DNA from: a virus
Taxonomy: Duplodnaviria; Caudoviricetes
DNA: 26,695 nt
IMG/VR virus record: IMGVR_UViG_3300049185_000045
Coordinates: 1-26,695 of that record
Direction: 5' to 3' (one strand)
Numbering within the stretch: position 1 is the first letter of the stretch; every line of letters starts with the position of its first letter. Position numbers and translations under genes: made by a program. Below, piece after piece: positions 10,817-26,401 of the stretch. Under the pieces are notes generated by a model. It searched no databases and was not told where the DNA came from. It was given only the letters and a program-made list of their open reading frames with translations.

Positions 10817-10874
10817 CTTCTACCTCATTCCTGCGTCTCGTCATTCTGCGTCCAGCGCCTATCTATATGAAGGC

Positions 10875-10895
10875 TGTCTAAACCAGCCTTAGACA
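10875..10895. repeat. Inverted pair TGTCTAA-N7-TTAGACA (left attP arm-type sites)
   Basis: Read directly; the same motif pair recurs at 11016-11037 on the other side of the core. Confidence 0.7.
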
Positions 10896-10906
10896 CTCGC
10901 TCGAAA

Positions 10907-10922
10907 TGTTCCACGTGGAACA
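10907..10922. promoter_or_regulatory. parS: parS-type palindrome TGTTCCACGTGGAACA
   Basis: Perfect 16-bp palindrome matching the chromosomal ParB site consensus TGTTNCACGTGNAACA. Confidence 0.8.
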
Positions 10923-10947
10923 ACAACATAGTCGCTAGCCCGCATCC

Positions 10948-10992
10948 CTCTTAATCAGTAGGTTGAAGGTTCAAGTCCTTCACAGCCCACCA
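10948..10992 (+). other. attP: attP core: 3' half of tRNA-Lys(CTT)
   Basis: CTCTTAA anticodon loop, GAAGG-TTCAAGT-CCTTC T-arm, CAGCCC-A-CCA end; no 5' half; 46 bp from the integrase stop. Confidence 0.88.
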
Positions 10993-11015
10993 GTTTTTTA
11001 CTCAGTTCGTCTATG

Positions 11016-11037
11016 TGTCTAAGGCCGTTCTTAGACA
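11016..11037. repeat. Inverted pair TGTCTAAG-N6-CTTAGACA (right attP arm-type sites / hairpin)
   Basis: Read directly; abuts the integrase stop codon. Confidence 0.7.
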
Positions 11038-11934
11038 TCACTTCACCGGCCGTCTGCGCTCGCCGCGGGTGTACACCACTCGCATTTGCCCCATGTGGCC
11101 GATTACGTTGCGATCTGGGGCGTCCGTCTGCGCCTTCGGGCGTAGCTGCCGGAATTGGAAGCCCGGCTGTAATCGCCTCATAGCGCTTTGCAGGCCCCAC
11201 TCCGACCACGGCAAACCGCGGGGCGAGGTGAACAGGAACTCACTGCCACGCGATAGAGCTCGGCCGATGAAGAACGCCAGCGTCTGGCTGATCTCGTACT
11301 CGGCCGGCTTGCCTGTCTTGCTCTCGACGAACACCAGGCGATCGCCACGAACCGCGGTGCGTTTCATCGCTCGAAGGTCGGTCTGACGGATACCAGTCAG
11401 GTAGGCAACCGCCAACAAGTCCTGAACACATTCCGGCGCTCGATCAATGGCAGCAGAGAGTGCTCCATGTTCGACATACGCCTTACTCGGGCGCTCTCTG
11501 TTTCGACGTACTCCATGACACGGGTTGAAGTCCAGCCATCCTTTTCGCATACCGAAATTACAAGCACTCGATAAGCATGCTCGTTCACGGTTGCCAGCCA
11601 CGGCGCAGCCTTCGTCCTTCCGTCGTTCGAGATACTGGGCGACATGTGAAGCCTTCAGCGAGTTGCGGTGCATGTGACCACAGAAGGGAATCAGGCGCGT
11701 GACCACGATCCGCCGATAGTCCTTCTGCGTCGGGGGCCGAAGCTCGGCCATCCCGTGTTTGACGAACGATAGAAGCACGCCTGCCATGTTGTGCGGGTCT
11801 GCCTTGGTCAGCTCATAGTAGGCTTCGAGGAGCGCAACTTCGCCGTCCTCGATGCGCGTGAGCGGATGCCACTTGTTGCGCCGGACGACGTAGTAGCGGC
11901 CGTGCTTCGCTGTGACCCCTGGCGGGAGTTGCAT
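11038..11934 (-). CDS. int: Tyrosine integrase
   Basis: TGIRQTDL (R), ESKTG (K), FRQLR, IGH, VY; next to the tRNA-derived attP. Confidence 0.92.
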   Translation of the reverse strand: MQLPPGVTAKHGRYYVVRRNKWHPLTRIEDGEVALLEAYYELTKADPHNMAGVLLSFVKHGMAELRPPTQKDYRRIVVTRLIPFCGHMHRNSLKASHVAQYLERRKDEGCAVAGNRERACLSSACNFGMRKGWLDFNPCHGVRRNRERPSKAYVEHGALSAAIDRAPECVQDLLAVAYLTGIRQTDLRAMKRTAVRGDRLVFVESKTGKPAEYEISQTLAFFIGRALSRGSEFLFTSPRGLPWSEWGLQSAMRRLQPGFQFRQLRPKAQTDAPDRNVIGHMGQMRVVYTRGERRRPVK

Positions 11935-12116
11935 GCGGAGAAGTCCGGTTGTAGTTCTGGGCCCAAGAGTGCCCGATTGATCGCATCGATGGTAGTCCAG
12001 GGACTGCCGTCAGCCCCGACGCCGTGAACGATCTTGTTTTCGTCCAGCCACTGGCGCACCGCAAGCCTTGACTTGCGGCGGCTCATCTCTCGCAACTGGT
12101 CGAATTGGACGATCAT
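11808..12116 (-). CDS. Excisionase-like protein (DUF4224-like)
   Basis: QLREMSRRKSRLAVRQWLDENKI...GADGSP...QPDFSA upstream of int; its tail overlaps int by 127 nt. Confidence 0.65.
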   Translation of the reverse strand: MIVQFDQLREMSRRKSRLAVRQWLDENKIVHGVGADGSPWTTIDAINRALLGPELQPDFSACNSRQGSQRSTAATTSSGATSGIRSRASRTAKLRSSKPTMS

Positions 12117-12131
12117 GGTCAGGTCAGCAAT

Positions 12132-13554: not shown

Positions 13555-14183
13555 CTATGCGAAGCTCTTGATTGCTTTCGCGACGAGCTGCGCCGCGTTC
13601 GGGACGACAGCGTTGCCGAGGGCATGCCTTCGGTGTGGCCAGTCGGGAAGCCCATCATCCGCTCCCAATCCTCTGGGTGCTGAATCCCACGCGACTGCAA
13701 GCTCATCCGCCATCTGCCGACCCTCCCGGCTCCACCACCGCGACAGCTCCCGTAGGCGCTGGCAGTCGGAGTGGGCAACAAGGAAGATGCGTCTGCGGAG
13801 GTGCCGCGCGCCAACGTCAGCGGCGGACAATTGAAGCGGCACGCTGGCATACCCGATGGCATGCAAGCAGCGCCGCAGCTCGGGCACCCATGCGCGCCAG
13901 CGATGCTGGCTGTTCTCAACAACCACCCAGTCAGGACGTACATCAGCGAGCTCTGCGAGCCGGTGAGGCCGGTCCGCTTGCCAGCTACCGACAAGTCCTG
14001 ACACGGGAAGCCCGCTGAGATCACGAGCGTCTGCGTACGCAGGTACTCGAGGCCAGTGTCGGCCGAGCACGGCTCTGCATCCTGCGTCGATCTCAACGAA
14101 GGCGACCGGCTCGATTCCTTCTCGCTCGAATCCAACGGTGAATCCTCCGACGCCAGTGAATAGATCGATGTGGAACATGTCAT
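13551..14183 (-). CDS. C5 DNA methyltransferase, chain B in overlapping +1 frame (motifs IV-V, IX)
   Basis: SAGFPCQDLSVAGKRTGLTGSQSSL, LLPTPTAS, HPEDWERMMGFP; ATG 14183 is ATGA-coupled to the upstream ORF. Confidence 0.7.
   Translation of the reverse strand: MTCSTSIYSLASEDSPLDSSEKESSRSPSLRSTQDAEPCSADTGLEYLRTQTLVISAGFPCQDLSVAGKRTGLTGSQSSLMYVLTGWLLRTASIAGAHGCPSCGAACMPSGMPACRFNCPPLTLARGTSADASSLLPTPTASAYGSCRGGGAGRVGRWRMSLQSRGIQHPEDWERMMGFPTGHTEGMPSATLSSRTRRSSSRKQSRASHS
13555..14178 (-). CDS. C5 DNA methyltransferase, chain A (motifs I-III, VI-VIII, X; lacks PCQ)
   Basis: DLFTGVGGF, FVEID, YAD, VVVENS, GY, HLRRRIF, ALGNAVVP. Confidence 0.85.
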   Translation of the reverse strand: MFHIDLFTGVGGFTVGFEREGIEPVAFVEIDAGCRAVLGRHWPRVPAYADARDLSGLPVSGLVGSWQADRPHRLAELADVRPDWVVVENSQHRWRAWVPELRRCLHAIGYASVPLQLSAADVGARHLRRRIFLVAHSDCQRLRELSRWWSREGRQMADELAVAWDSAPRGLGADDGLPDWPHRRHALGNAVVPNAAQLVAKAIKSFA

Positions 14184-15006: not shown

Positions 15007-15105
15007 TCACTCTCCCAGAGCGGTTCTCTGTAGCTTTCCGCATGCGAAGCAAATCTCGCGATGCCAGAGCCATTCTTTGCAGTACCTGCAGGTCCCGCAG
15101 CTCAT
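15007..15105 (-). CDS. 32-aa Cys-rich peptide (not in ORF track)
   Basis: MSCGTCRYCKEWLWHREICFACGKLQRTALGE; ATGA overlap with MT-A70 stop. Confidence 0.45.
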   Translation of the reverse strand: MSCGTCRYCKEWLWHREICFACGKLQRTALGE

Positions 15106-15641
15106 GCCACCATCTCCACGTCGGATGCAACTTCATTGCCCCATGAATGCCAGCCAAGACGACGCTGGCGAGCGAAAAGCTCCAGCCGAGGTCCTGCAGA
15201 TATACTTTCGATCAACCGGAAAGACTCGGTTGGTTTCTCGCTGTGCCGAAGTGGCCTGCCGCCAGTGACCAAGACGTTCGGCTTGTAGCGCTCAAGAGGA
15301 AACACGCACCGGGAGCGGTATCCGAACAGGAGCGTCTGGCTCCGATGAATGAACCAATTGCCCTGGCCAGACGGCTTGATCCAGTGAATCGGCGCGAGAT
15401 ACCGAAATCCCCACGACCGCATCACCTGGAAGCCGTGTTCGAGGTGTTGGTTCGTGGTCCACAGCCACAGGTGGCAGTCACTGTCGGCGAGATCAGCGAC
15501 TGGGAGCGCACAGATACGATCGAGGCTCATAGTTGGATACGGCAGCGTAGGACCGCCGAAGCCTCCCTTAGCTCGCCGCCGCGGCCGGCCGAGCGATAGC
15601 TGCCACGGTGGATCGGCGAGGATGGTGCGGTACTTGTTCAC
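15102..15641 (-). CDS. MT-A70 family adenine methyltransferase
   Basis: YRTILADPPW, YPTMS, LWLWTTN, WGF.Y, HSEKP, RLELFAR...GW..WGNE; GTG 15641 coupled start. Confidence 0.92.
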   Translation of the reverse strand: MNKYRTILADPPWQLSLGRPRRRAKGGFGGPTLPYPTMSLDRICALPVADLADSDCHLWLWTTNQHLEHGFQVMRSWGFRYLAPIHWIKPSGQGNWFIHRSQTLLFGYRSRCVFPLERYKPNVLVTGGRPLRHSEKPTESFRLIESISAGPRLELFARQRRLGWHSWGNEVASDVEMVA

Positions 15642-15718
15642 AACAGCGCCTTGGCGATCCCGCACCAAAGCAGGAACCAAACCATCAGCGCAAAGGCGTC
15701 TATGAGCTTCTGTTTCAT
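15638..15718 (-). CDS. 26-aa membrane peptide (not in ORF track)
   Basis: MKQKLIDAFALMVWFLLWCGIAKALL; ATGA and GTGA coupling. Confidence 0.5.
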   Translation of the reverse strand: MKQKLIDAFALMVWFLLWCGIAKALL

Positions 15719-16425
15719 AGGCCATCGCACTTCGTTAGAGCGCTACGCAGCGCTTTGATCTCGTCGTCGATTGGCCCCCAATACCGTCCGCCTGAAGCCT
15801 CGATCTCGAACCGACCTTCGTAGGCATCCAGCACGGCGTGAACCGCAACAATCAGCTTGTCCAGGTCCCGCTGCGGAACGGTGACGCTGACAGGTCCTGG
15901 CGGTTGGGCTAGTCGCTGCTCATGGCAGCGGTGACAGACGTTCACGGCAAGCGGCCCCCATGTGTGTCCTTCCTTGGAGCACAGGTCGCGGTTGAGCTGT
16001 CGAACGTCAACCGCCGGTTCGGACGGCATGTAGCTCGCTACATATGTCCCAGCGGGAGAAACCTCACTGTATCTTGGCGGAAGTGCGTCACGCGGTCCGG
16101 TCCAAAATCGACCAGTCTCATCGTGCTGCGCGATGACTGCGTATTCAGTGTGAGCCGCCGGCGGTTCGTGACGTGAGTGCCACTGGTCTTTGCACGACTG
16201 CGTCGACTCGCCGAAATCGTTCGTCGGATGCCTGTGCGGCTCAGGAGACTTGCACGTGGGGCACGAGCTGATCTGCTCCAATGCCAGCGCGCACACTTCT
16301 GCCTCTTCGTTGTTCAGCTCGACGCGGCCAATGGGTGGGCGGTCGGCGCATGCAATCTGCGAGCGCAAGAAGCGCGCAAGGACCTGCATTCGCTCTTTCG
16401 ATGGCGCTTGAGTAGGGTCGCTCAT
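15715..16425 (-). CDS. Mosaic hypothetical protein
   Basis: ATGA-coupled start at 16425; short segments separated by EPP/QPP linkers. Confidence 0.6.
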   Translation of the reverse strand: MSDPTQAPSKERMQVLARFLRSQIACADRPPIGRVELNNEEAEVCALALEQISSCPTCKSPEPHRHPTNDFGESTQSCKDQWHSRHEPPAAHTEYAVIAQHDETGRFWTGPRDALPPRYSEVSPAGTYVASYMPSEPAVDVRQLNRDLCSKEGHTWGPLAVNVCHRCHEQRLAQPPGPVSVTVPQRDLDKLIVAVHAVLDAYEGRFEIEASGGRYWGPIDDEIKALRSALTKCDGL

Positions 16426-24290: not shown

Positions 24291-26401
24291 ATGTGCTCGC
24301 ACTCATGAGCAACGCTCTGCTGGTCACCTACACGCTCTTTCCAGACGTGACGCCGGCCACGAAGACCGAGCGCGCCGATGTTCCCTGGGAAACACTCGTC
24401 GACAATATCCGCAAGGCGCCGACCTATATCAACAAGGCTGCCTGCCCGCTGATATCGATGGGCGAGTACGGCGATCTGCGCACAGACAAGGATTGTCTGC
24501 GCCATGCTGCGAACGTCCAGCGTGTATTCGGCGTCGAACTCGACTACGACGGCGAGCAGATGCCGATCGAAGAAGGCGCGGCGATCCTACAGCGCGCAAC
24601 CATTTGCTCGGTGCTGTACACCTCGCCATCGCACACACCAGAAAAGCCGCGGTGGCGCGCATTGCTGCCACTGTCCGAGCCGGCGCTGCCGGACAAGCGA
24701 CGCGAATACGTTGGGCGGGCCAACCGGTTGCTCGGCGGCATTGCCTCGCGCGAATCATTCACGCTCTCGCAAAGCTTCTACCTCGGGCGAGTGCGGGGTG
24801 CCGAGTATGTGGTAATCGACACGCAAGGTCGCTACATCGACTGCGCGTTTGATATCGAACCGCTGTACCACGTCGGCGGGGTCAATGACGGCGAATCTGC
24901 CCGCGACGCCACGACCGATGCACAGCTGCGCGAATGCTTTGAGCAGGGCGCCGGCCGCTACGAGGCAATGCTCAAGCTATCTGCGCGCTGGGCGGCACGC
25001 GGCATGCCGGCGGATGACATCGAGTCGAATCTGCTGGCGCTGCTCGGTGCTGGCTACATGAACCACGACGGGATCGACCTACGCACTCGAGCACGGCCGA
25101 TGGCCGACAGTGCGGTGAGGAAGTTCGGCGATAGCAGGCTGCCTGCTCCGCAAGCACAGCTACCAGCGCAACCAGCACCAGATCAAGAACAGCCGCCCCA
25201 TCCGGCTGAGGCCGAGCCCGCACAAGGGCAGCGCATTGAAGCCACGGTATTCGAGTGGGTTGATCCGAAGACCATACCGCCACGGCCATGGCTGTTCGGG
25301 CATCACTACATGCGCGGCATGGTCAGCGCGACCGCGGGTGTCGGCGGCGCAGGTAAGTCGACGTTGCTGAATGTCGAACTCGTTTCCATGGCGATCGGCA
25401 AGGATCTACTGCGCGATGGCCGCGAAATCCCAGTGGGGCCGCTCGCTGTATGGGGACACAACGGCGAGGACCCCAAAGTCGAACTCGACCGCCGCCTTAT
25501 GGCCGTGTGTCAGTACTACGGCGTCACCAAGGAAGATCTCGGCGGACGGCTGCGCATTACATCTGGTCGCGATATGCCGATCATGGTGGCGCGCGAACTC
25601 GCCGATGGCGGCAAGCTGCTGGTGCCAACCGAAGACGGTAAGCAGATCGCAGCTGAAATCCTCAAGCACGGGATTCAGGTATTTGTCGCAGATCCCTTCG
25701 TCACGATCCATCGCGTTAACGAAAACGACAACACGATGATCGACTGCGTCATGACGATCCTGCGAGACCTCGCCGATCAGACGCGCTGTGCGCTCGAAGT
25801 CGCCCATCACTTCCGCAAACTCAACGGAGAAGACGCCAGCGTCGATGCGGTACGCGGCGCGGGCGCAATTATCGGGGCCTGCCGCAGTGTGCGCATCACG
25901 TCCAGCATGTCGAAAGAGGATGCTGCTAAGTACGGCATCGATGACGAGCAGCGCGGCTTCTATCTGTGGCTGCAGAACGGCAAGTCGAACATGCTGCCGC
26001 CTACTCACAAGCGCCAGTGGCTGTTCATGGCGAGCGCCAACCTCGGCAACGAGGCGGCGCCTTTCAAGTCAGACGAGGTCGGTGTGGTCACCACATGGAC
26101 ACCACCAGAGATGTCCACCGACCTGACGCCACCCGAGTTCCGCGATGTGCGCAAGGCCATTCATGAGGCCAATCCAATCGCAGCCCTGCGTCACGACGTC
26201 AGGTCCACAGGATGGATCGGCAACCTCATGGCGGCGACGCTCGGCAGGGACGCAACCGACAAAGTTGTGAAGGGCCAAATGCTCAGTCTCATCGCTCGGC
26301 TCGAACACGGCGGACACCTTAAGCGACAGGAAGTCAGAGATCCAAGGGCGGGTAGGTCGGTATCTGTTTTTATGTGGGTCAAGGGAGCAGAAGTCGAATG
26401 A
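24287..26401 (+). CDS. Primase-helicase replication protein (AEP-like N-terminus plus AAA_25/RepA-type helicase)
   Basis: ELDYD and YTSPSH...PRWR primase motifs; P/Q/A linker; Walker A GVGGAGKST, Walker B VFVADP, AHHFRK, RGAG. Confidence 0.88.
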   Translation: MNVLALMSNALLVTYTLFPDVTPATKTERADVPWETLVDNIRKAPTYINKAACPLISMGEYGDLRTDKDCLRHAANVQRVFGVELDYDGEQMPIEEGAAILQRATICSVLYTSPSHTPEKPRWRALLPLSEPALPDKRREYVGRANRLLGGIASRESFTLSQSFYLGRVRGAEYVVIDTQGRYIDCAFDIEPLYHVGGVNDGESARDATTDAQLRECFEQGAGRYEAMLKLSARWAARGMPADDIESNLLALLGAGYMNHDGIDLRTRARPMADSAVRKFGDSRLPAPQAQLPAQPAPDQEQPPHPAEAEPAQGQRIEATVFEWVDPKTIPPRPWLFGHHYMRGMVSATAGVGGAGKSTLLNVELVSMAIGKDLLRDGREIPVGPLAVWGHNGEDPKVELDRRLMAVCQYYGVTKEDLGGRLRITSGRDMPIMVARELADGGKLLVPTEDGKQIAAEILKHGIQVFVADPFVTIHRVNENDNTMIDCVMTILRDLADQTRCALEVAHHFRKLNGEDASVDAVRGAGAIIGACRSVRITSSMSKEDAAKYGIDDEQRGFYLWLQNGKSNMLPPTHKRQWLFMASANLGNEAAPFKSDEVGVVTTWTPPEMSTDLTPPEFRDVRKAIHEANPIAALRHDVRSTGWIGNLMAATLGRDATDKVVKGQMLSLIARLEHGGHLKRQEVRDPRAGRSVSVFMWVKGAEVE

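Follow-up and report, generated by a model that had tools for sequence, protein, structure and literature searches.

A chromosomal-type parS site in the attP arm of a temperate phage and its recurrence beside tRNA-type att cores

Lambda-type attP regions contain accessory sites for the host proteins IHF and Fis. The borrowing of a host centromere by a mobile element is already known from the phi29 family of phages and, with a plasmid ParB, from SGI1. The virulent Bacillus phages phi29 and Nf are described as carrying host-type parS sites that are read by the host protein Spo0J, and host ParB is thought to be borrowed there for the positioning of phage DNA; phi29 has five such sites and employs them in spore entrapment (PMC2731898). 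SGI1 carries parS mimics that use the ParABS system of an IncC plasmid and that are reported to stabilise the excised form of this integrating element (PMC10954446). On the chromosomal side, the M. xanthus parS consensus TGTTCCACGTGGAACG is reported to bind ParB as a single site in vitro (PMC3899335). Here, we describe a phage in which a chromosomal-type parS lies inside the attP arm, an arrangement that appears to be new: no role of parS or ParB at attP was found in the literature searched, which consisted mostly of the main texts of papers free of subscription.

The analyzed stretch of DNA (the window) is a whole virus record of 26,695 bases with an estimated completeness of 68%, and near-identical DNA is present in soil metagenomes. 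It contains tail, lysis, integration, repressor-like and primase genes. Two DNA methyltransferases, of the C5 type and the MT-A70 type, are encoded in the early region (13555-14178 and 15102-15725). Like phi29 and Nf (PMC2731898), the phage carries a host chromosomal parS, but it has integrase, excisionase and repressor-like genes, unlike the virulent phi29 with its lack of an integrase, and a single site in an attP arm instead of five, and its putative host is a gammaproteobacterium. The likeness to SGI1 lies in an integrating element with an orphan parS and a ParB acting, in the case of the phage presumably, in trans; SGI1, however, is not a phage, its sites copy a plasmid rather than a chromosomal parS, and the sections of the report cited here do not state a placement of the sites in an att arm (PMC10954446).

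The 16-bp palindrome TGTTCCACGTGGAACA at positions 10907-10922 satisfies the parS consensus perfectly, and about 1e-5 exact matches to the degenerate consensus are expected in the window. The only other parS-like word in a search allowing up to three mismatches has three (24379-24394, within the primase/helicase gene) and is within chance. The same 16-bp word constitutes the centromere of chromosomal ParABS systems, with the M. xanthus consensus differing in one end base (PMC3899335); unlike its chromosomal counterparts, the phage site is single and is not accompanied by parAB in the contig. A promoter scan returned one weak site at chance level. A search of tRNA and Rfam families gave no match at the site, which is no surprise where only half a tRNA is present. 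On all the sequence tests available, 10907-10922 is a parS.

Along the window, the order is arm repeats, parS, the core, another group of repeats, int with its stop codon first, and the excisionase gene. The arm distal to int contains predicted Int arm-type repeats of the GTCTCG/GTCCAG type at its end (10832-10860, in conserved alignment columns) and an inverted pair with a TAGAC-type motif (10875-10896), of which AGAC is invariant in 10 aligned attPs; the right half of this pair forms an 11-bp inverted repeat with 11015-11025. The end of parS, which follows in the same arm, is overlapped by a degenerate IHF-like position on the plus strand (10918-10930) that has one mismatch in the relatives L190 and L126, a level that the window itself misses. 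The att core on the plus strand (10948-10992, 45 nt) corresponds to the 3' half of tRNA-Lys(CTT), starting in the anticodon loop and ending with CCA. Further predicted arm-type repeats occupy the int-proximal arm (11004-11037), and conserved repeats, the putative Int sites, thus flank the core on both sides; the repeats and the palindrome were annotated without a strand. On the minus strand, a tyrosine integrase of 298 aa (11038-11934; PHROG 1 integrase, E 3e-25), whose family profile matches solved phage integrases, is followed by an excisionase (11934-12119; PHROG 1266 excisionase, E 1e-5).

In all eight metagenome runs examined, contigs with tRNA-like 5' halves of other organisms join exactly at the core start, 10948. 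Because the integrated relatives L123, L193, L196 and L199 show a complete tRNA-Lys(CTT) beside the int end, the region around the core can be taken as an attP. The locus resembles the lambda attP and is of the tRNA-targeting type: genes for a tyrosine integrase and an excisionase adjoin a core that equals the 3' half of a tRNA, arm repeats flank this core on either side, and many arms of the family have IHF-like sites. A first-pass annotation of the window had placed a perfect chromosomal-type parS inside a tRNA-Lys(CTT) attP, and its position between the arm-like repeats and the core bears this out.

The 45-nt core had no match at up to three mismatches among the tRNA-Lys genes of 251 genomes of the inferred host family (see below); its T-stem is paired, yet the core differs from the tRNA-Lys of these genomes at more than three positions. 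Among the relatives, the T-stem letters of the core vary pairwise. The target switches within the integrase family among tRNA-Lys(CTT), Lys(TTT), Thr, Asn, Ile(CAT) and Arg (loci L129, L143, L147, L195, L197, L201, L206 and L210), and the arm repeats stay similar. An ORF was noted downstream of int in L136, L138 and L139. In the last two, this ORF matches the first 47 residues of the integrase, which suggests an arm-binding domain fused to another domain. L124/L416 have an HNH/endonuclease VII-like ORF (1483-1941), which in L124 lies between int and the att core.

By geometry, integration would leave the parS of this temperate phage at the att junction distal to int. In the integrated relatives L123 (80% identity), L193 and L199, the full tRNA-Lys is found at the int end and no parS is present there. 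The first-pass annotation had made the same prediction for the junction, which stands on geometric grounds, and had added that the site would act as an ectopic centromere in the lysogen, for which no instance was seen: no integrated copy had a parS at its far junction in 401 genomes of the order, nor in 401 genomes of the class, a search of low power because only 2 of 201 family genomes had such an integrase at E<=1e-40. Inspection of the possible far-end regions of prophages L199 and L197 revealed no parS beside a tRNA half. No integration joints of the window phage were found in the contigs of 8 of the 24 soil runs listed with near-identical DNA.

Integrase relatives were gathered from viral, metagenome and genome collections, and all loci were scanned for parS. 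The resulting tree comprises 45 non-duplicate rows with about 34% identity or more, 10 of them integrated and 35 non-integrated forms. A parS-like site is present in 11 of the 35 non-integrated loci, 46-66 nt from the T-loop of the core, and absent from the remaining 24; eight of the sites are perfect 14-mers, and three have one or two mismatches. The loci with a site are spread over at least five parts of the tree. All variation among the eight perfect copies falls at positions 1, 5, 12 and 16, which are the degenerate positions of parS. In strain contigs whose arms differ at 21 and 10 other places, the only change inside parS is G10918A, an exchange for the other canonical letter, and parS is unchanged in a variant whose int-side spacer has been replaced. 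Judged by these comparisons, the parS word is under selection in the family. The scan of related attPs had been set beforehand as a test, and the site recurred in the relatives rather than being absent from them.

In the closest clade (75% identity or more), five of nine free attPs contain parS and four do not, at equal arm length; L185 keeps half of the site, which looks decayed. Since parS is absent from 24 of the 35 family loci and from these four closest attPs, its benefit would be modest or conditional. No 16-mer with up to two mismatches was found near the int end of more distant integrase loci (about 27-35% identity), and the best integrases of cultured phages are about 31% identical to that of the window. 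Among 36 virus records of the family that were not chosen for parS, five perfect sites were found, four of them at attP, which is more than a purely arbitrary address predicts. When one mismatch was allowed, 12 of the 36 records had a site, five at attP and seven only elsewhere, compared with 0 of 46 for the control; 10 of the 12 off-att sites fetched fall inside ORFs. The family thus tends to keep parS somewhere, with attP as a favored, not a required, address.

As the first-pass annotation had stated, par genes are missing from the window: ParB_N gave no match at E<=0.1 in this 68% complete contig, and none of the 43 ORFs scanned matched ParA or ParB families. The check extends beyond the window, as the complete parS-bearing relatives G205, G209, G211 and G224 are likewise without ParB_N. 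Of 35 records whose att-like core is accompanied by parS, 3 have a ParB_N match; of the 16 among them that are at least 90% complete, 1 has. That the palindrome is read by another protein, either a ParB-like or regulatory protein of the phage or a member of the CRP family, or that it is a functionless relic, seems very unlikely to us. Such an account could draw on the incompleteness of the contig, on the three records with ParB_N and on the three family sites with one or two mismatches in the 14-mer, as well as on the decayed-looking L185. It is at odds with the absence of ParB_N from complete relatives carrying the site and with site variation that tracks the parS variants of the host itself. 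CRP-type sites, moreover, have a free spacer, unlike the family sites, 10 of 11 of which keep the central six bases.

The closest named prophage integrase, 59% identical, is found in a metagenome-assembled genome of the Steroidobacteraceae, which makes this the likely host family. The perfect 14-mer occurs in 57 of 61 Steroidobacteraceae genomes, mostly at two to four sites, as against 3 for the reversed control, and dnaA is no more than about 3 kb away from these sites in the genomes checked. ParB was found in five of five genomes. The residues R173 and G201 of ParB are reported to mark parS specificity (PMC7383237), and their equivalents, counted along the motif, are present in all three Steroidobacteraceae ParB proteins read. 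For the inferred family, both the parS word near oriC and a parS-type ParB were thus found.

Since host parS lies beside dnaA, any circle carrying parS could plausibly co-localise with the origin, and ParB might steer attP to an origin-near attB where host ParB is concentrated, as the first-pass annotation had suggested for an origin-proximal tRNA-Lys. This idea did not survive a look at the target. The distance of tRNA-Lys(CTT) to parS/dnaA is 0.87 Mb in G032 (same contig), about 1.12 Mb in G014 (4.04-Mb contig, treated as a circle) and about 1.16 Mb in G047 (treated in the same way); the target is therefore not origin-proximal in these three host-family assemblies. Other att sites with parS, moreover, use many different tRNAs and tmRNA. 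An origin-proximal attB is ruled out by these distances for the inferred host family, and steering of this kind is the least credible of the explanations considered.

parS is common on viral DNA in general. We estimate from 3 of 64 database parts that about 2600 viral stretches contain the exact 16-mer, compared with 66 stretches that contain a palindrome with a swapped centre. Beside 80 viral parS sites, no integrase was found among 99 ORFs with lengths of 200-520 aa (104 ORFs minus five near-duplicates), and 52 of the 80 sites lie within ORFs; therefore, most phage parS sites are unrelated to att. We also scanned for att-like arrangements, requiring that a parS half-site precede a T-loop and CCA by 31-92 nt on one side of the core, which gave 91 records, 84 of them distinct (L370, with parS on the opposite side, turned up by chance). 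A full parS rather than a half-site was present in 34 of 39 records with a perfect T-stem, full tRNA genes included, and in 18 of the 45 others, which are chance look-alikes (p=1e-5); the bias of parS to non-coding DNA explains part of this excess.

Thirty-three of 38 candidate proteins from these records are integrases according to PHROGs or homology to the window integrase, and they form 18 clusters at 35% identity. In 17 clusters, the window's and 16 others, parS lies beside a tRNA- or tmRNA-type att core (15 perfect sites and two with one mismatch); the remaining cluster, L533, has an integrase and a half-site only and was counted against. As read from the sequences, the cores are 3' halves of Lys, Cys, Arg, Met/Ile, Pro, Asn, Thr and Ser tRNAs and of tmRNA. 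Six loci with no recognisable integrase among the ORFs tested (L451, L453, L493, L498, L504 and L522) were left out of the 17.

These six loci have parS beside a partial tRNA and flanking ORFs of 350-450 aa without a PHROG or Pfam match. The integrases of L478 and L481 go with a core resembling the 3' end of tmRNA, and parS precedes the T-loop there by 38 nt. In L447, L459, L462, L495, L502 and L512, a perfect parS is directly followed by a complete tRNA gene, in several cases with a CAT anticodon. In many small viral contigs of about 15 kb, only a few bases separate a perfect parS from a downstream tRNA-Gln-like gene, which is frequently degenerate, with odd or stop anticodons (L341, L346, L348, L350, L354, L357, L360, L380, L385, L391 and similar).

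The abundance of parS on viral DNA, mostly away from integrases and often inside ORFs, and its occurrence just upstream of full tRNA genes in viral contigs would fit a role in the lytic cycle or in interference with the host, in which replicating copies load or titrate host ParB and attP is merely a handy non-coding slot. The reported drop in Caulobacter viability of up to about 1000-fold with plasmid-borne parS would be in line with it (PMC5815017). The preference of full parS for tRNA-type 3' ends, which a non-coding bias explains in part, and the four of five perfect family sites that lie at attP speak against such a role, and we consider it rather improbable.

Direct gating of integration or excision by ParB was a further suggestion of the first-pass annotation. 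ParB bound at parS or sliding from it would compete with IHF, Xis or Int in the arm and bias integration versus excision according to the ParB-CTP or cell-cycle state, and we entertain this account only tentatively. Fis acts at the lambda attP as a comparable accessory factor. Several features of the family would suit such a function. The arm across the core from int contains all 11 family sites, with distances to the T-loop that cluster at 53-54 and 63-66 nt, and a 10.5-bp phasing is seen in the family (R=0.74, p=0.009, n=8), the eight sites not being mutually independent; in L187, parS is 11 bp further out at unchanged arm length. An IHF-like 13-mer with up to one mismatch to the consensus overlaps or directly adjoins parS at 6 of 18 sites outside the family and at 5 of 11 within it, compared with 6 of 80 random viral parS sites (p=0.008). 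The presence of parS beside the att cores of 17 integrase clusters points the same way.

However, sites outside the family are unphased (R=0.17, p=0.5, n=26), and general helical phasing is not supported. The IHF adjacency is borderline when other positions within these att regions serve as the control (mean 2.7 of 18, 99th percentile 6) and also against a second control of other viral parS sites (7 of 62, p=0.06), and the IHF-like site of the window itself falls short of the one-mismatch level; we regard the adjacency as suggestive only. An obligatory accessory site of the intasome was rejected, as parS has been lost from four of the nine closest free attPs. Being dispensable in close relatives with the same arm, the phage site differs from the accessory sites of lambda, and a required role in integration or excision looks doubtful. 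A broader version, which we hold just as tentatively, casts host ParB as an unrecognised recombination accessory factor: in many unrelated temperate phages, a centromere in attP would let ParB-CTP and ParA drag att to attB or gate the intasome, and IHF or Int would then silence it in the lysogen.

The explanation that we prefer, with moderate confidence, is that parS serves as a host-type handle that loads host ParB onto the free phage circle for use by host ParA/SMC, both the binding and the benefit being deduced. What the data show is a conserved parS word, its occurrence next to dnaA in the likely host family, the parS-type residues of the ParB of that family and the complete relatives that carry no ParB. 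Host ParB would load at the parS of attP and spread in a CTP-dependent manner; ParA/SMC would then be engaged, and the circle would be kept on the nucleoid, moved and inherited until Int acts. Such a handle could be active before integration, after excision or during replication, and the non-coding att arm would be its favored address. A free episome stage that precedes integration is described for P22 (PMC4697819), and the search of an integrating element for its target is described for ICEBs1 (PMC10123120). Because parS is reported to be the point of force in P. aeruginosa (PMC5098823), attP would be the leading point, and we propose that it becomes the point at which the circle is pulled across the nucleoid.

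The handle model has a cost to account for. An extra mid-arm parS pair is reported to lower the fitness of Caulobacter (PMC5815017), and attB is mid-arm here, so the model needs either masking of the site or tolerance by the host. After integration, the phage parS is predicted to lie about 1 Mb from oriC, which is outside the working and tolerated zones described for P. aeruginosa and Caulobacter (PMC5098823, PMC5815017). We propose that IHF or Int bound at the junction might mask parS in the lysogen.

Taken together, the occurrence of parS in the attP arms of 17 integrase groups links lysogeny with the segregation of the chromosome. There is a paradox in this, as the lysogen would receive an additional centromere at a distance of about 1 Mb from the origin. 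With its 16 bp, the site is a cleanly mutable handle on two questions, namely how an incoming circle locates the one attB and how carrier states are passed on without integration.
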